From Bacteroidota bacterium (GTDB lineage Bacteria; Bacteroidota; Ignavibacteria; UBA10030; UBA8401), in the NCBI GenBank assembly GCA_049578505.1, contig JBAUMC010000039.1, forward strand, positions 29,498 through 93,497: a DNA stretch of 64,000 nt, given 5' to 3'. This document shows, in pieces, positions 4,248 through 58,950 of this stretch (positions are counted from its first letter, which is position 1; each line of letters starts with the position of its first letter). Both the position numbers and the translations under genes were made by a program. The notes beneath the pieces were generated by a model. It did no database searches, was not told the origin of the DNA, and saw nothing but the letters and a program-made list of their open reading frames with translations.

Positions 4248-4406
4248 GGCAAAAACTCTCCACCGGGATTATCACCCAAAGAATTCTTTCTTGCTGACGG
4301 CTAAATCACCTCCGCAGTTTTCGCTTCCCAGTTTTGAGAATCACTTCAAATCCATTTCCACAATTGGTAATTTTCTTTTTTGACTCACTTCTTTCTTTCG
4401 CTTTTA

Positions 4407-4440
4407 CGTGCTAAAAAGTAGCACGGTATTTGTATTTTTT
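4407..4440 (+). terminator. Perfect 7-bp palindrome CGTGCTA-AAAAG-TAGCACG followed by a T-rich tract; either an intrinsic terminator of the upstream REC gene or an operator in front of PFOR
   Basis: Inverted repeat read directly from the sequence. The tail is gtatttgtatttttt. It lies 58 nt upstream of the nifJ start. Confidence 0.35.
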
Positions 4441-4497
4441 GCAGCAGAACAACATCAATTTTTGGATATCTCACACTGCACCAAAGGATAATAAAAA

Positions 4498-7400
4498 ATG
4501 GCCAGCAACGATCTTTCAGAGAAAAAAAGGGCAATGGTAACGATTGATGGAAACGAAGCGGCGGCGTTTGTAGCTCACAAAACAAACGAAGTGATCGCGA
4601 TCTATCCAATCACACCCTCATCCGGAATGGGCGAATGGTGCGACCAGTGGTCCTCCGAAGGGAAGAAAAATATTTGGGGAACAATTCCGCTCGTCGCGGA
4701 GCTGCAAAGTGAGGGCGGAGCCTCGGGCGCTGTGCACGGTGCATTGCAGACCGGATCGATGACGACGACCTTCACCGCGTCTCAAGGATTGTTGCTGATG
4801 ATTCCGAACATGTATAAGATTGCGGGTGAATTAACGCCGACGGTGTTCCATGTTTCGGCGCGTTCGCTTGCGACACAAGCGCTTTCCATTTTCGGCGATC
4901 ATAGCGATGTGATGTCGGTGCGTTCGACTGGATTTGCGATGCTTGCTTCAAATTCGGTTCAAGAGGTGATGGATTTCGCGCTGATTGCCCAAGCTGCAAC
5001 GTTGGAATCACGACTGCCGTTCCTTCATTTCTTCGATGGTTTCAGAACCTCCGCCGAGGTAATGAAGATTGAACAATTGACTGTCGATGACATCCGCGCA
5101 ATGGTGAAGGACGAATTGGTGTTTTCGCATCGTCAACGAGCGCTCACACCAGAGAAACCGGTTCTCCGGGGAACCGCTCAGAATCCAGATACGTATTTCC
5201 AATCTCGTGAAACGGTGAACCCGTTCTATGCCGCGTGCCCGGAAATAGTCCAAAAAACTATGGACAAATTTGCAAAGATAGTCGGGCGTCAGTACCATCT
5301 TTTCGATTATTTTGGGGCACCCGATGCCGAAAGAATAATCATCGTAATGGGTTCAGGTGCAGAGGTAATCCACGAAACCGTTGAGGCATTGATGGACAAG
5401 AAGGAGAAAGTCGGTGTGCTTAAAGTGCACCTGTTCCGCCCCTTCTCTGTCAAGCATTTCGCCGTCGCTCTTCCGAAGTCGGTGAAATCAATCGCAGTTC
5501 TCGACAGGACGAAAGAACCGGGTGCGGCGGGTGAACCGCTGTATCAAGATATTGTCACGGCAATTGGTGAAGCGATGACAGAAGGCTTTTCACCTTTAGC
5601 TTCTTATCCTCGCATTATTGGCGGACGGTACGGATTATCGTCAAAAGAATTTACGCCGGCAATGGTGAAAGGGGTCTACGATGAACTTAAAAAATCAAAG
5701 CCCAAAAACCATTTCACGATAGGCATCAACGACGACGTCAGTCATACCAGCCTCGAATACGATGCTACCTTTACGACGGAAAAAGACGATGTTGTGCGGG
5801 CGATGTTTTATGGCCTCGGTGCGGATGGAACGGTTGGTGCGAATAAAAATTCCATTAAAATTATCGGTGAAGACACCTCGAACTATGCTCAAGGATACTT
5901 CGTCTACGATTCAAAAAAATCGGGAACAACAACTGTGTCCCATCTTCGTTTTGGCCCCCGTCCAATTCGCTCTTCCTACCTGATCGACAAAGCGAACTTC
6001 GTCGGATGTCATCAATGGTTGTTTCTGGAGAAATACAACGTCCTCCGCGATTTGGTCGAAGGCGGAACCTTCTTGTTGAACAGCCAATACCCCGCTGATG
6101 AGGTATGGAGCAAACTCCCGAGAATTACACAGGAAGAAATCATCAGAAAGAAATTGAATTTTTATGTCATCGACGGTTATGCGGTGGCTGCGAAGACGGG
6201 AATGGGAGGAAGAGTTAATACGATCATGCAGACATGCTTCTTCGCGATTTCCGGTGTTCTGCCAAAAGACGAAGCGATTGCAGCTATCAAGAAGTCTATT
6301 AAGAAGACGTACGGAAAGAAGGGGGAAGATATCGTAAAGATGAATTTCGAAGCTGTTGACCAAACGCTCGTCAATCTTTTCAAAGTGAAAGTGCCGGCAA
6401 AAGTTGACAGCGTATTAGAGCTGCCGCCGGTTGTTTCGGACAAGGCCCCCGATTTTGTGAAAAACGTTCTTGCAAAAATCATTGCAGGGTTCGGCGATGA
6501 ACTCCCTGTCAGTGCTATGCCGATTGACGGGACGTTCCCGACCGGCACTGCAACTTGGGAGAAAAGAAATATTGCCCTTGAAATTCCGGCATGGGATGAA
6601 AAAATCTGTATCCAGTGCGGAAAGTGTGCGCTCGTTTGCCCTCACGCGACGATTCGCATAAAAGTCTTCGACAAGAAACTTCTTGCCGGCGCCCCTTCAA
6701 CGTTCAAGAGCACAGAGTACCGCGGCAAAGAGTACGAGGGAATGCAATACTCGATCCAGGTCGCACCGGAAGATTGCACCGGCTGCGGGTTATGCTTCGA
6801 AGTCTGCCCGGTAAAGAACAAAGCCGAAACCCGGCTCAAGGCTCTTAACATGGTACCTCAGCCCCCGATTCGCGAGCAGGAACGTGCGAATTGGGATTTC
6901 TTCCTTACGCTGCCGGAAGTCGACCGCAACACTGCGAAAGTCGACACAATCAAAGGTTCGCAATTTCTCCAGCCGTTGTTTGAATTCTCCGGCGCCTGTT
7001 CGGGTTGCGGTGAAACTCCCTACATCAAATTGGTAACACAGTTATTCGGCGACAGAACCGTTGTGGCAAATGCGACCGGCTGTTCTTCGATTTACGGCGG
7101 GAACCTTCCGACCACACCATGGACAAAAAATTCCGATGGACGCGGGCCCGCGTGGTCGAATTCGCTCTTTGAAGACAATGCGGAGTTCGGCCTCGGCTTC
7201 CGTCTTTCGATTGATAAGCATAAAGAATTCGCGTCGGAATTATTGAAAAAACTCTCGCCGACAATCGGTGAAGAGATAACGAACGCAATTCTTAATGCAG
7301 ACCAATCGGACGAAGTGAAAATATATGAGCAGCGCCGCCGGGTCGAAATCCTCAAAGACAAACTGAAGGACATTCAGTCAACCGATGCAAAGCACCTCCT

Positions 7401-8153: not shown

Positions 8154-9143
8154 ATGGATCTCTCCACGACATATCTCGGTCTCAAATTAAAAAATCCGGT
8201 CGTGCCGTCGGCATCACCGATGTCCCGCACGGTTGCCGGCATCAAAGCAATGGAAGATTACGGCGCTTCCGCTGTCGTCCTCTATTCTCTTTTTGAAGAG
8301 CAAATCCGGCATGAAACGAGTGAGCTCGACCATTTCCTCTCGTACGGAACAGAAAGCTATGCCGAGGCGATTTCATATTTTCCGAAAAAAGAAGACTATT
8401 TTCTCGGTCCGGAAGAATACTTGAAGCATATTCAGGATGTCAAGCGTTCCGTCGATATCCCGGTTATCGCAAGCTTGAACGGCTCGACAGTGGGCGGTTG
8501 GACAGATTATGCCAAGAAGATTCAGGATGCAGGGGCTGACGCACTTGAACTGAATATTTATCACGTTCCAACAGACCCGGATAAAACGGGAGGTTATGTT
8601 GAACAACTGTATCTCGAAATTCTTCAGGCCGTGAAAGCGAAAGTGTCGATTCCCGTCGCGGTGAAGCTTTCACCGTTTTTTAGCTCGATGGCGAACATGG
8701 CGAAACGCCTCGACGAACGCGGCGCGAATGGGCTGGTGCTGTTTAACCGTTTCTACCAGCCGGATATCAACCTCGATGACCTCGAAGTTGAGCCGAGTGT
8801 GGTGTTGAGCAGTTCTGATTCGTCCAGATTGCCCCTTCGATGGATCGCTATTCTCTACAAGACAATCAAAGCCGACCTTGCCGCAACAACAGGTATTCAT
8901 ACCGGAGAGGACGTCATCAAAATGACGATGGCTGGCGCGAACGTAACCATGGTCTGCTCGTCGCTGTTGCGAAACGGCCCAAAACGGATCGGCGAGATTC
9001 TTACCGGTGTCCAAAAATGGATGATCGAACGAGAATACGAATCTCTCGACCAAATGCGCGGCAGCATGAGCCACAAATCTGTTGCTAACCCTTCTGCATT
9101 AGAACGGGCGAATTACATGAAAGCGTTGAACAGCTACATGTAA
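8154..9143 (+). CDS. Dihydroorotate dehydrogenase-family (DHOD/DHPD-like TIM-barrel flavoprotein) protein, commonly associated with PFOR
   Basis: A 329 aa ORF. The N-terminus [15 protein letters not shown] and overall length are typical of the class-1 DHOD-like family. It lies 54 nt downstream of nifJ. Confidence 0.7.
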
Positions 9144-9310: not shown

Positions 9311-10479
<1,169 letters not shown>

Positions 10480-10502
10480 TACAAACAGCGTCTACTAACC
10501 AA

Positions 10503-10544
10503 GGGCTGAAGCTCGTAGCGCGAGTTCAGCCCTTTTGTTTCTTG
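10503..10544 (+). terminator. Rho-independent terminator after gap
   Basis: An 8-bp GC-rich stem (GGGCTGAA/TTCAGCCC) with a 14-nt loop is followed by TTTTGTTTCTTG. Confidence 0.7.
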
Positions 10545-10621
10545 TCTTAATCCAAAAGGAACCGTTTTCCTATGCTGGAATCGTTTCCTTCTTATTACTA
10601 ACACTATAACCAACGACGACA

Positions 10622-11821
10622 ATGAATAAGCTGACTATCAATGATATCGATGTTCGCGGCAAGCGTGTTCTCGTGCGGGTAGACTTCAATGTACCGCTTG
10701 ACGAAAAACAAAACATTACAGACGGTACACGTATCGTCGAATCTCTTCCGACTATAAAAAAAATTCTCTCTTCCGGAGGTAAAGCGATTCTGATGAGTCA
10801 TCTCGGGCGTCCGAAGGGAAAACCGAAACCGGAGTTCAGTCTGAAGCCGGTGGCGGCCAGATTAGAGAAACTCTTGGGCAAGAAAGTCTACTTTGCATCT
10901 GATTGCATCGGTCAGCCCGCTGAATCTGCCGCGGCGGCTTTAAAGGAAGGCGAATGCCTTCTTCTGGAAAACTTGCGGTACCATAACGAAGAAGAGGCTA
11001 ACGATCCGGCCTTTGCCAAGTCCCTTGCCAAACTCGGCGACCTATATGTCAACGACGCCTTCGGCAGCGCCCATCGCGCCCATGCTTCGACGGAAGGCGT
11101 CACAAAATTTATCTCCGTTTCAGTTGCTGGATTATTGATGGAGAAGGAATTGAGGTATCTGGGCGCCGCTGTCGATAACCCTGTTCGCCCGTTTACAGCC
11201 ATTCTCGGCGGTGCTAAAATTTCAGGAAAGATCGACGTGATTCAAAATCTTTTATCCAAAGTCGATACGTTGATCATCGGCGGCGGAATGGCGTACACCT
11301 TCTACAAAGCACAAGGACTCGAAATTGGGAAGTCGCTCCTCGAAGCGGATAAGGTTGAACTGGCAGGACAAATTTTGGCCGCCGTTCAAAATAAAACTGT
11401 GAAATTCCTTTTGCCGGTAGATTGCGTTGTCGCAAGCGATTTCAAGAACGATGCAGAACGCAAAATTGTTACGAAGGATAAAATCCCTGCAACCTGGCAG
11501 GCCCTCGATATCGGCCCCGCGAGCGTTGAGCTCTTTTCAAGTGAGGTGAAAAAATCGAAGACCGTTGTCTGGAACGGTCCGATGGGCGTTTTCGAGTTTC
11601 CGAATTTTGCGGTCGGAACCAATGCCGTTGCGCGCGCGTTAGTAGAAGCGACGAAGAACGGGACGACTACGATTGTCGGAGGAGGGGATTCGGCTGCGGC
11701 TATCACACAGGCAGGAATGGCAAAAAGTGTAACGCATGTTTCTACGGGAGGCGGCGCCTCCCTAGAGTTTCTGGAAGGGAAGGTACTTCCCGGTGTCGCT
11801 GCGTTGACAGATAAGAAATAA
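10622..11821 (+). CDS. pgk: Phosphoglycerate kinase
   Basis: A 399 aa ORF. It carries the N-terminal RVDFNVP motif and the hinge/ATP-binding motifs typical of PGK. Confidence 0.95.
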
Positions 11822-15901: not shown

Positions 15902-16696
15902 TTGTCCGCTCAGTTAAACATCCTTTTCATCGGTGACATCGTCGGAAAGCCCGGACTGGAGATGACGTCAACGATTCTCAAGAGCCTTCTCGAAAAGCAC
16001 CGCATCGATATGTGTATCGCCAACGGTGAAAACCTCACGGACGGCAAAGGCCTTTCGGAAGAAGATGCAAAAAAGCTCTTCGACCTGGGAGTTCATGTTA
16101 TCACCTCCGGAAATCATGTGTGGGATCGCTGGGATTCCCGCAAGGTGCTTGGAGGAAACAGAAATATTCTGCGTCCCCTGAACTACCCACGTGAAAACGC
16201 TGGGAACGGTTTTGTGATTTATGAACTTGAAGGAAAGGGGAAGGTCGGAGTTCTTAACGTCCAAGGAAGGACGTACATGCAGCCTCTGGACGACCCGTTT
16301 AAGGTTGTCGACTGGGCGCTTGGGAAAATCAACGAGGTGACGAAGGTTTCGATTCTCGATTTTCACGCCGAAGCGACCGCAGAAAAGATCGCTATGGGAT
16401 GGTACGTTGACGGCCGGGTCAGTGCCGTCGTCGGGACTCATACCCACACTCCGACTGCCGATGCGAAGATTCTTCCGCGGAGTACTGCTTTTATTACCGA
16501 TGTCGGCATGTCCGGGCCGTATGATTCGGTAATTGGGATGAACAAGGAGCAAGCCATTCATCGTTTCCTCAAACAAACGCCTCATAAATATGAGACGGCG
16601 ACAAATGACGTTCATCTTTGCGCTGTCGTAATCGAGGTTGAAGTTGAGACCGGTAAAGCCTTGCGGATAGAGCAAATTATCTTCCCCAAATTTTGA
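15902..16696 (+). CDS. YmdB-family metallophosphoesterase (2',3'-cyclic-nucleotide phosphodiesterase-like, TIGR00282)
   Basis: ILFIGDIVGKPG...GENLTDGKGL...ITSGNHVWD are diagnostic of YmdB. The proposed TTG start at 15902 follows AAGGAA by 7 nt and gives the canonical N-terminus. The ORF-track start at 15860 is probably too long. Confidence 0.8.
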   Translation: MSAQLNILFIGDIVGKPGLEMTSTILKSLLEKHRIDMCIANGENLTDGKGLSEEDAKKLFDLGVHVITSGNHVWDRWDSRKVLGGNRNILRPLNYPRENAGNGFVIYELEGKGKVGVLNVQGRTYMQPLDDPFKVVDWALGKINEVTKVSILDFHAEATAEKIAMGWYVDGRVSAVVGTHTHTPTADAKILPRSTAFITDVGMSGPYDSVIGMNKEQAIHRFLKQTPHKYETATNDVHLCAVVIEVEVETGKALRIEQIIFPKF

Positions 16697-16752
16697 AAAT
16701 TGCCAAAGGGGCGGTTTAAAGTACAAGGCAAATGCTCATTGTACTTGATGCC

Positions 16753-16840
16753 GGCTCAGTTTGAGAAAAAATTGTAATGCCCACATTCCGAAGGACTCCT
16801 TCGGAGGATGCCTTTGGCACGGGGGAATGACAAATTGACC
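16753..16840. repeat. Copy 1 of a three-copy intergenic repeat family (GGCTCARTTTGAGAAA...ATGCCCAC...CCGAAGG-hairpin-GGGAATGRCAAATTG)
   Basis: Direct comparison with the copies at 28694-28822 and 32603-32678. The conserved ends are partially reverse-complementary (CAATTTG / CAAATTG), and the central hairpin is CCGAAGGA-c-TCCTTCGG. Confidence 0.6.
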
Positions 16841-16895
16841 CAATACCTATTATTTCTCACGCCCCGGTATCGTGCTTTATAACTAAACGCTCACT

Positions 16896-17792
16896 ATGTC
16901 AGCACTGATCATTGACGGAAAGAAAATAGCCGAAGAGATTCGAGGCGAGGTGAAGGATTCTGCATTGCGATTGAAAACCCGAACGGGGATCGCACCCGGG
17001 CTTGCGTTCATTCTTGTCGGCGAGAATCCGGCATCGCAATCGTACGTGAAGAGTAAAGGGAAAGCGTGCGAGGAATTAGGATTCTATTCTGTCACGGAGA
17101 AATTACCCGAATCAATTTCGGAAGCTGAAGTACTTTCCATGATTGAGGCATTCAACAGCGACATGAAAATACACGGCATCCTCGTCCAGCTCCCTCTCCC
17201 CAAACATATCAACGAACAAAAAATTATTGAAGCGATCTCGCCTGAAAAAGACGTTGATGGATTTCATCCTATCAGCGCCGGCAGAATGATGATCGGCGCT
17301 GAGACATTTCACCCCTGCACACCCGCCGGTATCTTGGAACTCTTAAAGCGGAGCAAAATTAATCCGTCCGGGAAGCACGTAGTCGTCGCCGGACGCAGCA
17401 ACATTGTCGGCAAGCCGGTTGCAAATATGCTTATGCAGAAAAAAGAATGGTGCAACGCGATCGTGACCGTTGCGCACACTGGCGCCCCCGACCTCGGATA
17501 TTATACACGCCAGGCCGACATCCTGATTGTCGCGATCGGAAAACCCCGGGCCATCACCGCATCGATGGTCAAACCGGGTGGGGTTGTGATTGATGTCGGT
17601 ATCAATCGCGTCGAAGATCGTTCGACAAAAACAGGCTACAGCCTTGTTGGGGATGTCGATTTTGATTCGGTGAAGGAAACCGCAGGTACGATTACTCCTG
17701 TTCCGGGGGGCGTAGGGCCGATGACCATTGCCATGTTGATGGTGAACACTCTGAAATCGGCTGAACGATTCCAGAACGCAATGAAGCGTTGA
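16896..17792 (+). CDS. folD: Bifunctional methylenetetrahydrofolate dehydrogenase / methenyl-THF cyclohydrolase
   Basis: A 298 aa ORF with canonical FolD motifs (YVKSKGKACEE, GRSNIVGKP, PVPGGVGPMT). Confidence 0.95.
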   Translation: MSALIIDGKKIAEEIRGEVKDSALRLKTRTGIAPGLAFILVGENPASQSYVKSKGKACEELGFYSVTEKLPESISEAEVLSMIEAFNSDMKIHGILVQLPLPKHINEQKIIEAISPEKDVDGFHPISAGRMMIGAETFHPCTPAGILELLKRSKINPSGKHVVVAGRSNIVGKPVANMLMQKKEWCNAIVTVAHTGAPDLGYYTRQADILIVAIGKPRAITASMVKPGGVVIDVGINRVEDRSTKTGYSLVGDVDFDSVKETAGTITPVPGGVGPMTIAMLMVNTLKSAERFQNAMKR

Positions 17793-25692: not shown

Positions 25693-27792
25693 TTAATTCC
25701 AGAATTCCCACGACACCCCGAAACGAACGTTCCGGTCATACATCGGATAAAACGGCGTCAACATATATTGATTGCCCGAGAGATTTTCCCAAATAAGATG
25801 GAGATAAGCGTCGCCGAGTTTCCCGATGACGAAAAAATCAGCGGTGCCGCTGGGGCCGAACGATTGGAGCAAAGTGTACGGGACAAACAATTCGGACTCA
25901 TTCAACGGAGCCATGCCGCTTTGCTTGGATGTGTACCTGCCGCGGAAGCCGATCTTGAGCTCGAGGTTTCCGTTCACCAGGAGGTTCTTGTAATAGATAG
26001 ATCCGTCAAGATACAACTCTGGAAGAAGCTGAAGCTTTTCGTCGATATGATAGTAATCGGGCTGCTTGAGGTATGTTGCATTCCCTTCCGCGTAGAAATG
26101 GTTGTATGAAATCTTCAACGATACATCGACGCCATTATAGATATTGAGAGCGGGTTGTAAAAACTCAAGAGTATAGTTTGGAGGGGAAGTCCCGAATTCG
26201 GAGGTTGTGTCAACGAGAATCGGGTTCTTAATTTCTCTATGGGTTAGTGAAATTGTACCGGAGAGAAAATCAGAAATCGCAAACCGTGTTCCGACCTGGA
26301 TGAGCATATGCTGTTCATTTTTCAACCATAAGCGCGGGGTTGGCAAATGGGTAGAGTCGCTGGACCAGTAAAGTTCCTGCAGAGTCGGAGTACGCTGTGA
26401 AACAGACAACCCTCCGAACAACGATAACGACGATGTGAGTGGAACTTGAGCGTCGGCCCCCGCCCCAGGAAGGTTTTGGCTGCGGTAATAATCGTCTCTC
26501 CCGAAGACAGCGAACGTTAACGGCGATAATACGAGAATCTCTTCTTTTGCGCTGGCGCTTAATTTGTTCTCTTTGCGTCCGCCGACTTCAGGACTTGATT
26601 CGACCTGAATCTCTTCTGCCTCTGCGGTAAGACTAAAATTCTGTGCGGCGCTTTCTATCTCATGCCGCAAAAGAAGGCCTGCATTTGAGTTCCGATTATC
26701 CGAATGTGTAAGGACACCGTTAAACGGCAATCCATCGGTATATTCCCGCACTTCGTCGCGATATTCCCTTAATTGATTGGAATAATAGGCCGTCAGCGTC
26801 GTGACTTGCATTGTATCGTCGGTTAGATGACCGGCGGCGGTAAGGTCAAGATGGTGATTAAATAATTTCTCGTATGCTTCGTTGTTCGAAACGGTGGCAA
26901 CTTGTTCGTTGAAATATTCGCCGGAGAGAGTTTGAAGGTAATCGACGCCGCCGTTCAATCCTGTGTTCGCTTGCTCGTACAAATGAGAGAGAACAATGTT
27001 GAACGAATTCGAGATGTCATACCGGAGCTTTGTTCTGAACGACCACGCGTCGTAGTCGGAGTTGATGAAACGTCCACGATAATCCTGGTCGATCTGATCG
27101 AATCCGAGGGCATGCCGCTCGAGCCCAAACATGAAATTAAACCTGGAGAAAATGTTCTGACTGAACATCGCATCGGTCTGCGCGTAGTCGTCGACACCCT
27201 GGCTGTAACGGAGGCATGAGTAGGGTTTGTTCGTGTAGAAACTTTTCGTGACAATATTGATCGCGCCGCCTGTCGAATTCATTCCATAAAACATGGCGCG
27301 CGGTCCAGTGATGAACTCAATTCTCTCGATATAATCTGTTGGAAATAGTATCATATCGTAAGTTCCGGTAATGGGATCGGCTTGACTTCTCCCGTCGACA
27401 AGAAAAGCAATACCGCGCTCGTCAACTCCGCCGATGGTCAATTCGTTATGCTGTCCGGGACTTCCCATGTCGCGGATATACATGCCGGGTTTTGTCCAAA
27501 GTAAATCTCCTATGTAGCGGTATTCAATCCACGGAATTTGTGAACCGAGAATTACTGCGCTTGAATCTCCGTACGGTTCCAGCGCGCCGATAAGCGGTAT
27601 CGGTTTAATTCGAACGAGCGAATCTTTGGTCATTTCTGAAGGAGGTATCAAGGCGGAAACTGTATCTCTTCCTACAGGCGTAACCGTTTTTACAGTATCA
27701 TGTGTGAAGGAATATTGAGAAGCATAACACTGCGTAAAAAGGAGGGCAAGAGAGAATACGATAAATATACAGGCTCGTGGTGTGCCGGGCAT
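25693..27792 (-). CDS. TonB-dependent outer-membrane receptor
   Basis: It has a signal peptide, an N-terminal plug (ERIEFITGPRAMFYGMNSTGGAINIVTK), a long beta-barrel and a C-terminal aromatic residue (...WEFWN). Confidence 0.85.
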   Translation of the reverse strand: MPGTPRACIFIVFSLALLFTQCYASQYSFTHDTVKTVTPVGRDTVSALIPPSEMTKDSLVRIKPIPLIGALEPYGDSSAVILGSQIPWIEYRYIGDLLWTKPGMYIRDMGSPGQHNELTIGGVDERGIAFLVDGRSQADPITGTYDMILFPTDYIERIEFITGPRAMFYGMNSTGGAINIVTKSFYTNKPYSCLRYSQGVDDYAQTDAMFSQNIFSRFNFMFGLERHALGFDQIDQDYRGRFINSDYDAWSFRTKLRYDISNSFNIVLSHLYEQANTGLNGGVDYLQTLSGEYFNEQVATVSNNEAYEKLFNHHLDLTAAGHLTDDTMQVTTLTAYYSNQLREYRDEVREYTDGLPFNGVLTHSDNRNSNAGLLLRHEIESAAQNFSLTAEAEEIQVESSPEVGGRKENKLSASAKEEILVLSPLTFAVFGRDDYYRSQNLPGAGADAQVPLTSSLSLFGGLSVSQRTPTLQELYWSSDSTHLPTPRLWLKNEQHMLIQVGTRFAISDFLSGTISLTHREIKNPILVDTTSEFGTSPPNYTLEFLQPALNIYNGVDVSLKISYNHFYAEGNATYLKQPDYYHIDEKLQLLPELYLDGSIYYKNLLVNGNLELKIGFRGRYTSKQSGMAPLNESELFVPYTLLQSFGPSGTADFFVIGKLGDAYLHLIWENLSGNQYMLTPFYPMYDRNVRFGVSWEFWN

Positions 27793-28646
27793 CAGAGTAA
27801 TGGCATAAAATTGGGCGGTGTAACGGAAACGAAGTAATCGAGACTAAAGAAATTCTCCGCTTGCCGAGCATCAGTTTCATTGTTGAACAGTCCGAAAACC
27901 GAAGAGCCGCTTCCTGACAGTAGGGCGAATGCCGCTCCGTGCGAAAGGAGCTCTTGCTTTAAGCGGGCAATTTCCGGATAGGCGTTAAAGACCACATCCT
28001 CAAAATCATTTTCCATAAGAGAAGAAATGTTAGCTACCGTACACGTCGCACCGTCATAGAACTTGGCTTGCCGGACTGTGGGCTGCCTGCGTTTTGATAA
28101 TTCGCCGTACGCCCACGCGGTTGAAAGGTGTATGGTTGGAGTAACGACGAGAACAAAATATGGCAGTGAGAGTCTCACAAAGCTCAAACGCTCTCCCCGC
28201 CCTTCGGCATACGCACTCCGGTTGTGAAGAAAAAATGGAACATCGGACCCGATATTCAAGGCGACGTTTGCCAGGGTAGAAGGATCGATCGGAGTTTTCC
28301 ACAATGAAGAGAGTGACACGAGCACCGAGGCAGCATCGCTGCTTCCGCCACCCAGGCCCGAACCGATCGGGATGTTTTTCTTAATGCCTATTGCGGCACC
28401 CTGTATAGTACCAAGTTCATTTCTGAGAAGGTCAACGGCTTTCCAACACAAATTGTTTTCGTTTATTGGCAGCGCTTGGTTGTCACACGAAATTGAAATT
28501 GCAGAATTCGACGGCTCAACGGTCAGTTCATCAAAAAGGTTGATACGGTGAAAAATGGTTTCGATATCATGGAATCCGTCTTCTCTCTTTCTCAGAACAC
28601 GAAGCCCCAAATTTATTTTAGCGTACGCCTTGAGAAGCATGGTCAA
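27792..28646 (-). CDS. ispE: 4-diphosphocytidyl-2-C-methyl-D-erythritol kinase
   Basis: The GHMP kinase motif PIGSGLGGGSSDAA and the N-terminal KINLGLRV are present. Its stop overlaps the start of the downstream TonB receptor by 1 nt. Confidence 0.9.
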   Translation of the reverse strand: MTMLLKAYAKINLGLRVLRKREDGFHDIETIFHRINLFDELTVEPSNSAISISCDNQALPINENNLCWKAVDLLRNELGTIQGAAIGIKKNIPIGSGLGGGSSDAASVLVSLSSLWKTPIDPSTLANVALNIGSDVPFFLHNRSAYAEGRGERLSFVRLSLPYFVLVVTPTIHLSTAWAYGELSKRRQPTVRQAKFYDGATCTVANISSLMENDFEDVVFNAYPEIARLKQELLSHGAAFALLSGSGSSVFGLFNNETDARQAENFFSLDYFVSVTPPNFMPLL

Positions 28647-28693
28647 AGATACGAGGAGATTGGCGAAGTTTCAAGATGCGCGCCGCGTTAGTA

Positions 28694-28822
28694 GTGGCTC
28701 AATTTGAGAAACAAATTGTCATGCCCACGTGCCGAAGGCATCCCCTTGGGAAAAGTGGGCATCCATTGTGCCGCAAAAGCAGCGGATGTTTGGATTCCCG
28801 CTTTCGCGGGAATGACAAATTG
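28694..28822. repeat. Copy 2 (longest, ~129 bp) of the intergenic repeat family
   Basis: It shares the GTGGCTCAATTTGAGAAAcAAATTGtCATGCCCAC...CGCGGGAATGACAAATTG ends with the other copies. Its central segment is expanded. Confidence 0.6.
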
Positions 28823-28927
28823 CGCCCGCGCCGCCGCTTGCCATGAATAAATTGAGACTGAAGACGAAAGTCGCTATATTTCCGTTACTATGCCGCAATC
28901 ACTTGTTCAACAATAGTATTTATAGTT

Positions 28928-29362
28928 ATGCAAAAACGGGAAGCAATTATTCGGCACGTTCAAAATCTTACCTTTATCGGGAAAGCGGGTTCTAATCATT
29001 GGACCACAATGGATTCCTCGCACGGAGAAAGTTCAGCCGCTGCCACATCTCCGATGGAACTCATTCTCCTTGCTCTCGGAGGATGTACGGGAAGCGACGT
29101 GGCCATTATTCTGGAGAAAAAAAGAGCGCGTGTTTCCAAGTTCGAAATGAAGATCACCGGCGAACGTGCCGCAGAGGACCCGAAGGTGTATACCTCGATC
29201 CACATCACTTATATTTTCGAAGGGTTCAACCTCAGAGAGAAAGATATTGTCCACGCCATTGAACTTTCGATGACCAAGTACTGTTCGGTGAGCGCAATGC
29301 TCAAAAAATCTGTGGCGCTGACGTATTCGTATTCGATTGTCGGATCGGGTGGTGCGGCTTGA
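28928..29362 (+). CDS. OsmC/Ohr-family peroxiredoxin-like protein
   Basis: The OsmC fold signature with the two conserved Cys is present (LALGGCTG..., ...KYCSVS). Confidence 0.85.
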   Translation: MQKREAIIRHVQNLTFIGKAGSNHWTTMDSSHGESSAAATSPMELILLALGGCTGSDVAIILEKKRARVSKFEMKITGERAAEDPKVYTSIHITYIFEGFNLREKDIVHAIELSMTKYCSVSAMLKKSVALTYSYSIVGSGGAA

Positions 29363-29365
29363 TGA

Positions 29366-30010
29366 CTAGGCTGGTAAATTAATGTCTCGTAGCTTGATGA
29401 TTTCCTTTTCGATGCCCCGGATGTTAGTGTCAAGCTCTTGTATAACAGCTCGGTCGCTTGCGTTCAGTTTTTGTCTGGATATAATATCCGCACTGATCTT
29501 AATCGCTGCGAGGGGATTGTTAAATTCGTGGCAAATAGTAACCACGAGCTCTTTGATCGCCTCGCTTCGTTTTTGGCCGAGGAGTTTATTTTTTTCCACT
29601 TGTGCAATTTGTTTTTTCAGTTGAACTCGGTTCAAAACGTTCAACAGAGTCCGCGGGAGGACCGATTCGACAATTTCTTCCTTCACGAGAAAATCCTCGA
29701 CCCCCAGCTTCATTGCCTCCACGGCGAGCTGAAAGTCCTTCCCCGAAGCGATGAAGACGAGAGGAACATCGATTTTCAAACTTCTGATCTCTTTAGCGAG
29801 TTCTAAAGCAGTCATCTCGCTCAAATAATAATCGACGAGAACAACCGCGATAGTCAGATCGGTCTTGAGCCTTTCGATACCGCCGGCGCCGGTCTTTTCC
29901 CACGTTATTTTAAAATCGCTTCCTTGAAATTTCTTGAGTTGAGACTGCGCGGTTTTTGCGTATGAAATATCGTTGTCTATGAGTAATACGTGAATAAGAG
30001 GCTCGTTCAT
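29366..30010 (-). CDS. Receiver (REC) domain fused to a HisKA/DHp domain, lacking a HATPase_c domain
   Basis: The start at 30010 has AAGGGA 6 nt upstream. REC motifs (VLLIDND...VVLVDYYL...) are followed by the H-box ICHEFNNPLAAI, and the protein ends about 45 aa later. Confidence 0.75.
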   Translation of the reverse strand: MNEPLIHVLLIDNDISYAKTAQSQLKKFQGSDFKITWEKTGAGGIERLKTDLTIAVVLVDYYLSEMTALELAKEIRSLKIDVPLVFIASGKDFQLAVEAMKLGVEDFLVKEEIVESVLPRTLLNVLNRVQLKKQIAQVEKNKLLGQKRSEAIKELVVTICHEFNNPLAAIKISADIISRQKLNASDRAVIQELDTNIRGIEKEIIKLRDINLPA

Positions 30011-30162
30011 TCTATCCCTTGCACTAAATTTTATTGGATAAAGTAGCACAACTTTTTGTTTTAATCAACCGAACCGCGACTTTTTCAAATTTCTTGTTGA
30101 TTTTAATCCGCCGATTGTCTATAATTTACAGCCGAAAAAAGCGAATATCATGAGGAATTCCA

Positions 30163-30534
30163 ATGGCAGAAAAAAATAGCATTCTTGTTGTGGACGATGA
30201 AGATGCTTTGCGAACCGTATTAAGCAGTGAACTTGAGAGTGAGGGCTATGTAGTGGCGACCGCCGGAGATGGCGATGAAGCAATATCCGTTTTGCAGGGG
30301 AAATCGTTTGATTTAGTACTGCTCGATATTAAAATGCCGCGCGTCGACGGTTTTGAGGTCCTGCGGTTTATCAAAGAACGTTACCCAGCCACGAAGGTGA
30401 TAATGCTGACGGGTTTTGCCGACTTAAAAAATGCAATTGAGTCGAAGAAGTTGGGGGCAGAAGATTTCGTCAGCAAGCCGTACGATTTAGTCGATCTCTT
30501 AACGACGATCGAAAGAGTTCTTACCAGCGAATAA
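30163..30534 (+). CDS. Single-domain response regulator (CheY-like)
   Basis: ILVVDDE...LVLLDIKMP...KVIMLTGF...DFVSKPY. The protein is 123 aa. Confidence 0.85.
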   Translation: MAEKNSILVVDDEDALRTVLSSELESEGYVVATAGDGDEAISVLQGKSFDLVLLDIKMPRVDGFEVLRFIKERYPATKVIMLTGFADLKNAIESKKLGAEDFVSKPYDLVDLLTTIERVLTSE

Positions 30535-30576
30535 TTCCTGCCATTCCCTGCTTTTACCTTTCTCACGGGCATTGTC

Positions 30577-31956
30577 ATGGCTCGCACCTACAATATCCTT
30601 ATAGTCGACGATGAAGAGAGCGTCGTATTTCTTCTCAAGGAAGAGCTCTCGGAATTAGAGAAGTACGACGTTACAGTTGCATACGACGGCGCTGAAGCAA
30701 TCAACATTCTTCAGGGCCACCCTTTCGATGTTGTTCTTCTCGATGTGAAAATGCCTCGCGTCAGCGGGATCGAAGTCCTGAAGTACATTCGGGAACAGCA
30801 CCCGACTACGATTGTCCTTATGCTTACGAATTTTGCCGACGTCAAGACAGCAATCGAAACGATGAAGCTTGGCGCGTACGATTTTGTCAGTAAACCGTAT
30901 GAGCGGGAAGAATTGCTTGCAACGATTGACCGCGCACTCGAACTGCGCCGCCTTACGATCGACAATAAGCTCATGGAGTACGAGCTCAACCGCCAGGGGT
31001 TGGCTCGTGAGTTTATCGGGAAAAGTCCTGCAGTCCAATCCCTCATCAGCACGGCAAAAAAAATTGCCGATAGTACTGCAATCGTTCAGATTCAAGGTCC
31101 GAGCGGTACAGGTAAAGAGCTGATAGCCCATCTTATCCACACATCAAGCCCGAGAAAGAACCGCCCTTTTGTGATTGTGAACTGCGCTTCCATTCCCGAC
31201 GCTCTGCTGGAAAGCGAACTGTTCGGCCACGAGAAAGGAGCGTTCACGAACGCGTACGCGATGAAACAGGGTCTGGTCGAAGTTGCAAACGGAGGGACTC
31301 TCTTTTTGGATGAAGTCGGCGACATCAGCCCGATGATTCAGCCCAAGCTGCTCAGATTTCTCGAGACAGGGGAGTTCCGGCGGGTAGGGGGAACAAATGC
31401 GATGAAAGTCGACGTGCGTATCGTTTCCGCAACGAACAAGGATTTGCAAAAAGAGGTTGAGGCCGGCAGATTCAGAGAAGACTTATTGTATCGATTGAAT
31501 GTTGTGACCATTCGTATCCCCCCCCTGAAAGACCGCAAAGAAGATATCCCCCTTCTCATTGAGAATTTTTTGGGGAAAAAAATAAAGGGAAAAGCTCAGA
31601 AACGCCTGAGCGACGAAGCGGTGCAGGTATTGATGCGGTACGATTGGCCCGGCAACGTCCGCGAGATGGAACATGTCATCGAAGGAGCCGTCATTCTATC
31701 GCATGACGAAGTCATCACGGCAAAAGATCTGACACTGACCGCATCCTCGGGAATGCAAAATTTGAGCCCCGTTCCCATGCCGCAGAAAGAGGGTGAAGTA
31801 TTATCACTTGAGACAATGGAAAAAATGCAGATCGAACTCGTGCTGCAAAAGAATAATTACAACCGTTCAAAAACCGCCCAGTTGCTCGGCATCACTCCTA
31901 AGACGTTATATCTCAAAATTAAACGGTACGGTATAACTACCCCCACCAAAGACTAA
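30577..31956 (+). CDS. Sigma-54-dependent response regulator (NtrC/AtoC family: REC + AAA+ sigma54-activator + Fis-type HTH)
   Basis: It has REC, Walker A GPSGTGKE, the GAFTNA motif, ESELFGHEKGAFT and a C-terminal HTH (RSKTAQLLGITPKTLYLKIKRYGI). Confidence 0.9.
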   Translation: MARTYNILIVDDEESVVFLLKEELSELEKYDVTVAYDGAEAINILQGHPFDVVLLDVKMPRVSGIEVLKYIREQHPTTIVLMLTNFADVKTAIETMKLGAYDFVSKPYEREELLATIDRALELRRLTIDNKLMEYELNRQGLAREFIGKSPAVQSLISTAKKIADSTAIVQIQGPSGTGKELIAHLIHTSSPRKNRPFVIVNCASIPDALLESELFGHEKGAFTNAYAMKQGLVEVANGGTLFLDEVGDISPMIQPKLLRFLETGEFRRVGGTNAMKVDVRIVSATNKDLQKEVEAGRFREDLLYRLNVVTIRIPPLKDRKEDIPLLIENFLGKKIKGKAQKRLSDEAVQVLMRYDWPGNVREMEHVIEGAVILSHDEVITAKDLTLTASSGMQNLSPVPMPQKEGEVLSLETMEKMQIELVLQKNNYNRSKTAQLLGITPKTLYLKIKRYGITTPTKD

Positions 31957-32056
31957 TCCTTCACAGAATTTTTTTCCCTTACCCTGCAACTTTTTCCCTC
32001 TTTTTCCGAATACTATACAGAGCCGAAATCACCAATATTGTAATGAGGAGGGTAGT

Positions 32057-32479
32057 ATGAAGAAGGGAATGATTGCACGAGGCCTGATGGCCGTTGCGGC
32101 GGCAGCTGTTATTGGGTTCACTTCCGCTGCAGCATCAGAGCCGGGAGTTTCGAGGTATGGCGATGTTGACTGGAAAAAAGCAGAGGCAAACTATGTCGCC
32201 GCTTTAAAATCGGATAATATGGGCGTTAAGCAAAGTGCGGCAAGCTATGTAGCTGAGTACAAACTTAAAGGAGCTGTGGATCCTCTCATTCAAATCCTGA
32301 AGTTTGACAAAGTAGAAAGTGCAAGGATGTCAGCGGCGTTGGCGCTTGTCACTTTAAACGATGCGCGTGGCAGAGCTGCAGTTGAAGAGGCTACTTTGTA
32401 TGACGGAAGCGACAAAGTGGTTAGATTCTGCGAGTCATTGCTGAACGCTTCGCCGAACAAGTTCAGCGCAATGGAATAA
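32057..32479 (+). CDS. Secreted HEAT/armadillo-like repeat protein (hypothetical)
   Basis: Signal peptide and RBS GAGGAGGG. A short helical-repeat pattern is present. Confidence 0.5.
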   Translation: MKKGMIARGLMAVAAAAVIGFTSAAASEPGVSRYGDVDWKKAEANYVAALKSDNMGVKQSAASYVAEYKLKGAVDPLIQILKFDKVESARMSAALALVTLNDARGRAAVEEATLYDGSDKVVRFCESLLNASPNKFSAME

Positions 32480-32508
32480 AAGAAGTTCCTTGGATTCTCC
32501 CCCCTAAA

Positions 32509-32562
32509 GCCAGAGCATTACTCAATTGTTGTATGAGTAGCGCTCTGGCCCTCTCATTTTTG
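32509..32562 (+). terminator. Rho-independent terminator (nested hairpin plus T-tract)
   Basis: An outer stem (GCCAGAGC/GCTCTGGC) and an inner stem (TACTCA/TGAGTA) are followed by CCTCTCATTTTTG. Confidence 0.6.
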
Positions 32563-32602
32563 TAAATTCAATTCCACGTAGTAGTCCTGCCTTATCCATG
32601 CA

Positions 32603-32678
32603 GTGGCTCAATTTGAGAAAAAAATTGCCATGCCCACATTCCGAAGGGATCCCTCCGGTACGCGGGAATGGCAAATTG
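32603..32678. repeat. Copy 3 (shortest, ~76 bp) of the intergenic repeat family
   Basis: GTGGCTCAATTTGAGAAAAAAATTGCCATGCCCACATTCCGAAGGGATCCCTCCGG...CGCGGGAATGGCAAATTG. Confidence 0.6.
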
Positions 32679-32703
32679 AGTCAGCATCCTCACTCAACTT
32701 TGA

Positions 32704-32732
32704 TTGACTTTCGTCCATTTTTTCGGTAATTT
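32704..32732 (+). promoter_or_regulatory. Sigma70-like promoter TTGACT-17 nt-TAATTT upstream of the glutaryl-CoA dehydrogenase-like gene
   Basis: The architecture is the same as the gap promoter (TTGACT / 17 nt / TAAaTT). It lies about 60 nt before the ATG at 32795. Confidence 0.4.
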
Positions 32733-32794
32733 TTGAAAAATTTTCACTTGGTAAGCCTCTCTTTCGCAATGTTCCCCCTCGAAAGGAATGATCG

Positions 32795-33964
32795 ATGTTG
32801 AAGTCTCAAGGGGTCGATTATTATGCCATCGATTCTCAATTGAACGATGAAGAAATACTCGTCCGCAACACAGTTCGAGAATTTGTCGATGATAACGTTT
32901 TGCCGATTATTGAGAAGCATAATCGTGAAGGAACGTTTCCGCACCAACTTGTGAAACAAATGGCCGGACTCGGTCTTTTCGGTGCCACGCTTCCTGCGAA
33001 ATATGGGTGTGCTGAATTGAATAACGTTGCGTATGGGTTGATGATGCAGGAGTTGGAAAGGGGTGACAGCGGCGTTCGGAGTTTTGCGTCGGTTCAAAGT
33101 GCGTTGGTCATGTATCCTATTCATGTTTTCGGCTCCGAAGAACAAAAAGATTGCTGGCTGCCGAAATTGGCCAAAGGGGAAAAGATCGGATGCTTTGGAT
33201 TGACGGAGCCGGATTACGGGTCCAATCCCGGCGGAATGATTACCCGCGCGGAAAAAAGGGGGGAAGGTTTTGTTCTCAACGGAGCAAAAATGTGGATCAC
33301 AAACGGAACGATCGCAGATGTTGCCGTCGTGTGGGCAAAACTGGACGGCGAGATTAAAGGGTTCCTTGTTGAAAAAGGAACAAAGGGCTTTGAGGCTCCG
33401 GAAATGCATGGTAAACATTCTCTTCGCGCATCGGTCACGTCCGAACTTGTTTTTCAGGATTGTTTTATTCCGGAGCAAAATCTCTTACCGAAATCGGGCG
33501 GGTTGAAGTCTCCGTTAATGTGCCTGAGTCAGGCGCGGTACGGCATCGCGTGGGGGGCTCTCGGTGCCGCAACAGCCTGTTACGATGCAGCGCTTCACTA
33601 TTCATTATCCCGCGTGCAATTTGACAAGCCGATCGCTTCCTTTCAGATGACGCAGGAAAAACTTGTATACATGCTCACTGAAATCACGAAAGGACAATTG
33701 CTTTGTCTTCAGCTAGCGAGGTTGAAGGACCAGAACAGGGCGACGTTTGCGCAGATATCCATGGCGAAGCGGAACAACGTTTACCACGCCCTGGAAATCG
33801 CAAGAACGGCGCGGGAAATTTTAGGGGCAAACGGAATACTCGACGAATATCCGGTGATGCGCCATGCCGCAAACCTTGAATCGGTGAAAACGTACGAAGG
33901 AACGCATGAGATGCATACGCTCATTATCGGCGAAGATATAACGGGTATTGCGGCATTTAATTGA
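32795..33964 (+). CDS. Acyl-CoA dehydrogenase, glutaryl-CoA dehydrogenase-like
   Basis: ACAD N-, middle and C-domains are present (GCFGLTEPDYGSNPGGM, MWITNG, YEGTHEMHTLIIG). The length and motifs fit the GCDH subfamily. Confidence 0.85.
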   Translation: MLKSQGVDYYAIDSQLNDEEILVRNTVREFVDDNVLPIIEKHNREGTFPHQLVKQMAGLGLFGATLPAKYGCAELNNVAYGLMMQELERGDSGVRSFASVQSALVMYPIHVFGSEEQKDCWLPKLAKGEKIGCFGLTEPDYGSNPGGMITRAEKRGEGFVLNGAKMWITNGTIADVAVVWAKLDGEIKGFLVEKGTKGFEAPEMHGKHSLRASVTSELVFQDCFIPEQNLLPKSGGLKSPLMCLSQARYGIAWGALGAATACYDAALHYSLSRVQFDKPIASFQMTQEKLVYMLTEITKGQLLCLQLARLKDQNRATFAQISMAKRNNVYHALEIARTAREILGANGILDEYPVMRHAANLESVKTYEGTHEMHTLIIGEDITGIAAFN

Positions 33965-58374: not shown

Positions 58375-58950
58375 AGGAGAGAAATTTTTAGTGAAAAGAG
58401 GGAGCCAACGCTTACACAAAATAGTACTAAAAAAAAACTTGGCCTTCAACCGGATACTGGTGCATTTTGCATTACTTGGCGTCCTTCGCGTCCTTGGCGG
58501 TTAAAAGAAAAACCGCAAAGGACGCCAAGGGGCGCGGCGAACTCTTTGAAGGAATGCAGATAGTCTACCTCGCATTCGAAATGCATCACCACCTTCAACC
58601 GCGAAGGGACCTATAATTCTTAACGGGGACCTGATAGTTGGGTGTACCGTCTGAAATATTCTGTAAAAATGATTGTTTCGCGGCGAACGACAATTGGTTC
58701 TGCTTGAATTAAGTTAGCTCATAAAAGGAGGGGCGCTTCCGTCAAGTGGGCGACGTTACATTTTACCGATAGTTCGGTAGAAGCTAGACATCTTGGTCGG
58801 AATGTGAAACATTTGGTATAGTATCTTGGCTAGGTCTCCGCCATCTGCATAAACCGAGACACCGCTTTTAGGCTATTTATCTTGACTTTCGTGCCGGAAT
58901 TGGATAAATTTATACACTTTACGCGATTTCTGTAAACCTTAGGACTCAGA

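Follow-up and report, generated by a model that had tools for sequence, protein, structure and literature searches.

The window, that is, the whole 64-kb stretch of DNA that was analysed, carries three copies of a short repeat recognised by sequence reading and alignment, all of them on the plus strand and intergenic, while the gene content scanned consisted of housekeeping genes. The extents of the putative MITE copies are as follows, with the right terminal inverted repeat (TIR) given as its reverse complement:

16747..16847, + strand: copy 1, 101 bp, short form; left TIR GATGCCGGCTCAGTTTG, right TIR GGTATTGGGTCAATTTG
28690..28832, + strand: copy 2, 143 bp, long form with three internal hairpins; left TIR AGTAGTGGCTCAATTTG, right TIR GGCGCGGGCGCAATTTG
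32599..32688, + strand: copy 3, 90 bp, short form; left TIR TGCAGTGGCTCAATTTG, right TIR GATGCTGACTCAATTTG

Copy 1 is flanked by the genes of YmdB (+) and FolD (+), copy 2 by those of an IspE-like kinase (-) and OsmC (+) and copy 3 by a HEAT-repeat gene (+) and an acyl-CoA dehydrogenase (ACAD) gene (+), so that the first-pass annotation was right in describing the repeats as intergenic, between co-directional or divergent genes. With a length of 90–143 bp, and lying between annotated genes, the copies have no coding capacity; the only long ORF touching the copy 1 area (15968-16726, minus strand) overlaps YmdB and gave no Pfam match. According to the alignment, the three copies have 52 nt in common on the 5' side and 18 nt on the 3' side, separated by a variable middle. 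The presence of three copies at these positions was confirmed by the 5' 23-mer, which at up to 3 mismatches was found in the window only at the three copy sites, with 0 matches expected from 100 shuffles. The 3' and the central 18-mers had zero-mismatch matches in the window at the same three sites only; with the exception of a stray one at 26333, the extra matches that appeared at 3 mismatches fell within the opposite arms of the elements, on the minus strand. The 3' end is thus approximately an internal segment of the 5' side in reverse complement, and the elements contain an internal inverted repeat. An nhmmer profile built from four copies detected no further copies in the 64-kb window.

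The boundaries of the repeats needed correction. The initially proposed positions were correct, but the true elements are 4–10 bp longer at each end, and copy 1 starts with GCCGGCTCAG and not, as had been given, with GTGGCTCA, with an additional 1-nt deletion in the A-run. The comparison of all ends resulted in a TIR of 17 bp with the consensus GGTAGTGGCTCAATTTG, reaching six bases beyond the GGCTCA recognised earlier; derived from 30 ends, the consensus reads GGTAGTGGCTCA(A/G/T)TTTG. The motifs CAATTTG and CAAATTG, previously taken for the termini, are present but belong to the inner part of this TIR, and the window copies have, in addition, a subterminal inverted repeat (TTGTCATGCCC.. / ..GGGAATGACAA). 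The string GTAGTAGT, described as preceding two of the copies, is at copy 2 partly the terminus of the element itself (AGTAGTGG...), while at copy 3 it lies some 20 bp outside. The two arms of the TIR match in 11 of 17 positions in the window copies and in 14–17 of 17 in three elements from other contigs (L001, L015a and L008a). Among all loci compared, L008a alone was retrieved as a pair with GTAGTG at either end, because most of the right ends have diverged.

Immediately outside the TIRs, the window copies are flanked by decayed 8-bp target-site duplications (TSDs), listed here without strand:

16739..16746: copy 1, left TSD, TTGTACTT, 5/8 identical to the right one
16848..16855: copy 1, right TSD, TATTATTT
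28682..28689: copy 2, left TSD, GCCGCGTT, 6/8, or 7/8 with one indel
28833..28840: copy 2, right TSD, GCCGCTTG
32591..32598: copy 3, left TSD, CTTATCCA, 5/8
32689..32696: copy 3, right TSD, CTCACTCA

Taken alone, the window copies, with a TIR match of 11/17 and imperfect TSDs, are weak evidence. The duplications were much better preserved in other members, being 8/8 in L015a (CAGGCCTG / CAGGCCTG) and 7/8 in L001 (CTCCGTCT / CTTCGTCT). Over the 15 elements of the family and superfamily, the 8-nt flanks outside the TIRs were perfect (8/8) in 10, with a mean of 6.9/8 over the first 13, as against a mean of 2.1/8 in a control, where the left flanks were paired with the right flanks of other elements and only 1.3% of the pairs reached at least 5/8. 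Two earlier readings, of the copy 2 duplication as CGCGCCGC and of a 30-bp palindrome in L015 as a long TIR, were replaced when the 17-bp TIR register had been fixed; the TSD of L015a is itself palindromic, and the inverted repeat therefore appears 25–30 bp long.

The FolD encoded in the window shares 100% identity with a protein of an NCBI MAG (MGA7160317.1). The nearest relatives of the window genome are MAGs of uncultured Bacteroidota, which carry the labels "uncultured Bacteroidetes" or "Chitinophagaceae" and one of which is a 4.2-Mb chromosome (OY970334.1), and the gene order around all three copy sites is identical in them. Copy 1 is absent from the YmdB-FolD spacer in L008, L089, L097 and L011; this spacer measures 200 bp in the window and 101–107 bp in L008, L089-L099 and L011. 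The alignment placed the extra DNA of the window between ...TACTT and CTCACG..., and the relatives have at this site a single, unduplicated target (...TACTT|CTCACG). Copy 2 is absent from the IspE-OsmC spacer in six relatives (L009-L013 and L015), where the spacer is 129–135 bp long compared to 281 bp in the window, the difference being exactly the element. It sits between two blocks conserved in all genomes compared, which hold outward promoter-like sites:

28674-28646, - strand: promoter-like site flanking copy 2
28852-28880, + strand: promoter-like site flanking copy 2

The same six relatives lack copy 3 in the aligned HEAT-ACAD spacer, and, as with copy 2, the spacers without the element are shorter by its length. 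Fifteen bp separate the end of copy 3 from a downstream promoter-like box which is invariant in all relatives (six genomes). A box of the type TTGACTTTCG..(N)..GGTAAWTTT is found upstream of three genes in the window, at 32704-32733 (the invariant one next to copy 3), 9311-9340 and 58882-58911.

The reverse situation was found for L015a, a 140-bp family member with a 17/17 TIR match, which occupies a spacer between two response-regulator genes that is empty (112–113 bp) in the window and in five relatives. One further true copy was present on an unrelated metagenome contig, L001, the only one among seven stretches retrieved by a metagenome scan with the 5' 22-mer, the others being chance matches in coding DNA; a scan of genome contigs with the same 22-mer gave no matches. 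The presence or absence at orthologous sites, together with the copies elsewhere, indicates that the sequence is mobile and is not a conserved regulatory feature of particular genes.

The same termini also bound otherwise unrelated short elements, both in the relatives and in the window itself, where a fourth MITE, of a different family, is placed within a 500-bp spacer between the genes of a bifunctional sugar-nucleotide enzyme (-) and a GAF-GGDEF protein (+). The short elements of this superfamily and their remains are:

58453..58593 of the window, + strand: fourth MITE, different family, 141 bp; TIR GATACTGGTGCATTTTG / GGTGGTGATGCATTTCG
58445-58452 and 58594-58601 of the window: its TSD, perfect 8-bp TTCAACCG
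L008a, 4434-4578: 145 bp, TIR 16/17, TSD 6/8
L008b, 4596-5086: 491 bp bounded by TIRs, TSD AGCCATTT 8/8, without obvious gene
L089 and L012: 215 bp, TSD CAGATTTT 8/8
L013, 6006-6164: 159 bp, TSD ATGTTTCG 8/8, in the HEAT-ACAD spacer
L015b: 122 bp, TSD AAATTTCT 8/8
L015, 5931-5947, opposite orientation: solo TIR GGTAGTGGCTCAGTTTG in the HEAT-ACAD spacer
L012, ~4300-4316: fragment GGTAGTGTACGG in the HEAT-ACAD spacer

L008a and L008b both lie in the spacer between the PGK and rhomboid genes, which has 720 bp in the 4.2-Mb relative and 131 bp in the window. On L015, two different MITEs (8434-8555 and 8579-8718) lie only 23 bp apart, both with perfect TSDs (AAATTTCT and CAGGCCTG). Four of the seven genomes (the window, L013, L015 and L012), among them three of the six relatives lacking copy 3, have superfamily sequence in the HEAT-ACAD spacer, which looks like an insertion hot spot. 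The string GTAGTAGT about 20 bp to the left of copy 3 (32578-32598) may be a remnant of another end. The copy number amounts to 3 per 64 kb in the window and to 0–2 per 20 kb in the relatives.

Larger elements with these ends were found in viral contigs scanned with two TIR variants. The hits were mostly chance singletons, and four loci had the 16-mer as an inverted pair; as the TIR had been preselected by the scan, the independent facts are limited to the pairing in inverted orientation, the TSDs and the transposase. The four loci are:

L149, 265-3108: 2844 bp, 22-bp TIR, TSD CGCAGCGG 8/8
L116, 7263-10337: 3075 bp, 26-bp TIR, TSD GGCGAAGG 8/8
L178: 2416 bp, TSD only 4/8
L176: 486-bp MITE, TSD 8/8

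L149, L116 and L178 have identical TIRs, and each of these three large elements encodes one protein of 277–296 aa. Against the Pfam family DDE_Tnp_IS1 (PF03400) the three proteins scored 28.6–34.8 bits, i.e. above the gathering cut-off of 24.1, while their best NCBIfam match, also to the IS1 family, reached 52–56 bits vs a cut-off of 100. The BLASTP alignment with E. coli InsB was confined to the C-terminal motif ER.NL..R....R..R....FSK (E=2e-6). More than 8000 homologues were found, with the JGI name "IS1 family transposase", and homologues adjoin the TIR in L137, L150 and L167 as well; in L150, an end matching that of L001 in 19 of 19 positions has an adjacent transposase. The transposase of the full-length elements is encoded by a single ORF without frameshift, the stop codon of which falls inside the right TIR. 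A blastn comparison of the MITE interiors with the autonomous elements detected no similarity beyond the 17–19 nt of the TIR, and a likeness confined to the TIR is usual between a MITE and its partner. No transposase gene was detected by tblastn and gene scans in the 64-kb window or in approximately 0.3 Mb of related loci, and the literature search with the TIR strings or "ISMhu11" gave nothing relevant.

Two of the large elements carry passengers. The L116 transposon, which has four further ORFs besides the transposase, interrupts one repeat of a CRISPR array on an IMG/VR contig; the array flanks it at 7075-7272 and 10335-11505, has a 37-nt repeat (GTTGCAATACCCAGCTCACGGGCGAAGGRAGTGAGAC) with 19 copies in the stretch examined, and adjoins a 578-aa ORF with a Cas12f1-like TNB domain. 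L149 carries an N6/N4 DNA methylase gene (333 aa) and a 203-aa ORF without Pfam match, which may represent a mobile restriction-modification pair.

Among the rival readings, a REP-like nature had been offered by the first-pass annotation. A REP/REPIN element, a palindromic unit spread by a RAYT (an IS200/IS605-like tyrosine transposase) through a GTAG head and a single-stranded DNA hairpin, is suggested by the GTAG in many of the ends (GGTAGTGG...), the imperfect palindromes, the REPIN-like size and the strictly intergenic location. However, REP/REPIN elements and their Y1 transposases (IS200/IS605, RAYTs) are not known to duplicate the target; the 8-bp duplications flanking 15 elements led to the rejection of the GTAG head idea, the same termini bound transposons coding for a DDE enzyme of the IS1 type and not for Y1, and neither a RAYT nor any other transposase occurs among the window genes scanned, leaving this reading with hardly any probability. 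Small structured RNAs or attenuators were another early suggestion; the corresponding reading is a family of such RNAs, or of cis-regulatory leaders of attenuator or riboswitch type, conserved for RNA structure. In its favor, the fold of the long form (copy 2, L001 and L015a) has three hairpins, one of them with a GAAA loop, in addition to an outer stem, and in the consensus fold of five copies, a single long stem made of TIR positions 7–15 and the subterminal repeat, both partners have changed in a compensatory way in two base pairs (G-C instead of A-T in L015a, C-G instead of T-A in copy 3). The short forms, however, lack the three hairpins, and each of them has a different central stem around the common CCGAAGG. 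The central hairpin described as variable is built differently from copy to copy, and the conserved pairing is limited to the TIR and the subterminal repeat. The better-folding strand also differs from copy to copy, the element comes and goes among close relatives beside unrelated genes, and in L001 it faces the 3' end of the nearest gene-like ORF rather than standing upstream of a co-oriented one. Rfam 15 gave no matches at the gathering score for the whole window and, at E<=1, none for 28600-32800 and one spurious snoRNA match (E=0.21) for 16650-16950. These results speak against the RNA or attenuator proposal, which we regard as very unlikely; the palindromy is the look of a transposase-bound pair of ends and does not require an RNA.

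The inner palindrome could also have been adopted by the host after insertion. Copies immobilised by the loss of the outer recognition bases would then retain TIR positions 7–17 and the TTGTCAT.CCC/GGG.ATGACAA repeat under selection, with a role such as that of an insulator or a terminator between adjacent transcription units, of a site bound by a protein or of a structured 5' leader for the gene downstream. The uneven decay of the TIR points in this direction: in the window copies, 9–15 of 36 positions are changed in the outer six bases and only 3 of 66 in the inner eleven, and the subterminal repeat is kept along with the latter. The outer six bases are located at:

16747-16752: copy 1, left
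16842-16847: copy 1, right
28690-28695: copy 2, left
28827-28832: copy 2, right
32599-32604: copy 3, left
32683-32688: copy 3, right

Moreover, all three copies have one orientation, each upstream of a plus-strand gene, the double change in copy 3 is compensatory and preserves the stem, and copies 2 and 3 fold well beyond their shuffles (z -3.5 to -5.4, on both strands). Copy 1, on the other hand, folds no better than its shuffles (z -1.5); three copies fall on the same strand by chance in 1 case of 4, the downstream genes are unrelated, and none of the three sites has the element in the relatives. A transposase that needs to bind the two ends would likewise lead to matching changes in the arms, and copies with damaged termini could simply be those that are no longer excisable. 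A simple scan of the elements found no terminator and no promoter except for a weak minus-strand match (9/12) overlapping the left end of copy 1. Two candidates were rejected individually: a minus-strand intrinsic terminator made of the copy 3 hairpin and a U-run, since the flanking genes are on the other strand and the scan finds no terminator, and a sigma-54 promoter (TGGCAC) in copy 1, since a -12 element is missing and TGGCAC does not occur in copies 2 and 3. The difference between the outer and the inner TIR could reflect either selection on the inner palindrome or survivorship of immobilised copies, in which those with mutated cleavage-proximal bases would no longer have moved or been excised and hence persist. 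The better preservation of the inner palindrome and the shared orientation are not predicted by a purely neutral fossil model. Overall, adoption by the host seems improbable, albeit less so than the REP and RNA readings; if true, such copies might serve the host as an insulator or leader at the DNA or RNA level.

The three repeats are best explained as old, non-coding MITEs with IS1-type ends and 8-bp TSDs, to which we assign a probability of roughly 0.88. The first-pass proposal of a MITE-like mobile element is upheld by the TIRs, the 8-bp TSDs, the orthologous sites found empty and the autonomous elements bearing the same TIR, and its "novel" holds only at the family level: the family itself is previously undescribed, but this kind of element is well known. 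According to this explanation, the element would depend for its movement on a transposase supplied from elsewhere, which binds the two ends and, on insertion, generates the 8-bp duplication of the target. Since a widespread clade of IS1-family transposons has these ends, the mobilising enzyme is most probably a DDE transposase of the IS1 family. Mobilisation in trans by such an enzyme in the host and the lack of a host function are what we infer from the sequences. The insertion points would be the few neutral bases between the terminators and promoters of housekeeping genes, and the insertions would have taken place in the own lineage of the window genome, after its split from the sampled relatives. 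The TIRs of the window copies are the most decayed ones (11/17), which marks them as old insertions, and with the later decay of the outermost TIR bases and of the TSDs the copies are probably immobile now.

The main value lies in annotation, where such repeats should be labelled as MITEs and the labels of riboswitch or sRNA candidates or of REPs should be avoided. The repeats show that several MITE families with GGTAGTG termini in common have invaded an uncultured lineage of Bacteroidota from soil or wetland, the apparent drivers being a very abundant and little-studied clade of single-ORF IS1-family transposons able to carry passenger genes. The filled and empty sites could be used as strain or lineage markers in metagenomes. 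The repeats themselves are an ordinary kind of selfish DNA and open no long-standing question.

The signature GGnnnTG has been reported for the ends of IS1/IS6 elements (PMC6807381), and an ISAba3-like element of the IS1 family has the TIR GGTGGTGTTTCAAAAAG (GGTGGTG...) and an 8-bp TSD (PMC6382973). The ends of the window family (GGTAGTG..) resemble both the latter and those of IS1 (GGTAATG../GGTGATG..) and share the TSD length of 8 bp; the ends of E. coli IS1, read directly as GGTAATGACTCCAACTT / GGTGATGCTGCCAACTT, match our consensus in 11/17 and 8/17 positions (IRR 11/17). Since IS6 has the same signature, GGnnnTG with an 8-bp TSD, the ends and the TSD alone do not single out IS1. The location of the transposase stop inside the right TIR is another feature that the full-length elements have in common with IS1, where it concerns InsB. 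In contrast to IS1, the window elements are without any gene and their interior is unrelated to that of the full-length elements, while the partner transposases are distant from the E. coli enzyme, with alignment restricted to the C-terminal motif, scores below the NCBIfam cut-off and one ORF without a frameshift.

The elements are similar to MITEAba12 of Acinetobacter (PMC6382973) and the Correia elements of Neisseria in being 90–150 bp long, non-coding and intergenic, with TIRs and TSDs, in their variable presence between related genomes and in the decay of the TSDs in older copies. They differ from them in the sequence family, the inferred parent IS and the low copy number, and an outward promoter or terminator was not detected in the window elements. 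Like REP/REPINs, they are short, imperfectly palindromic and intergenic, and one of the ends has a GTAG-like motif; however, REPINs depend on a Y1 enzyme and have no TSD, whereas the window elements are flanked by 8-bp TSDs and have their termini in common with DDE transposons.
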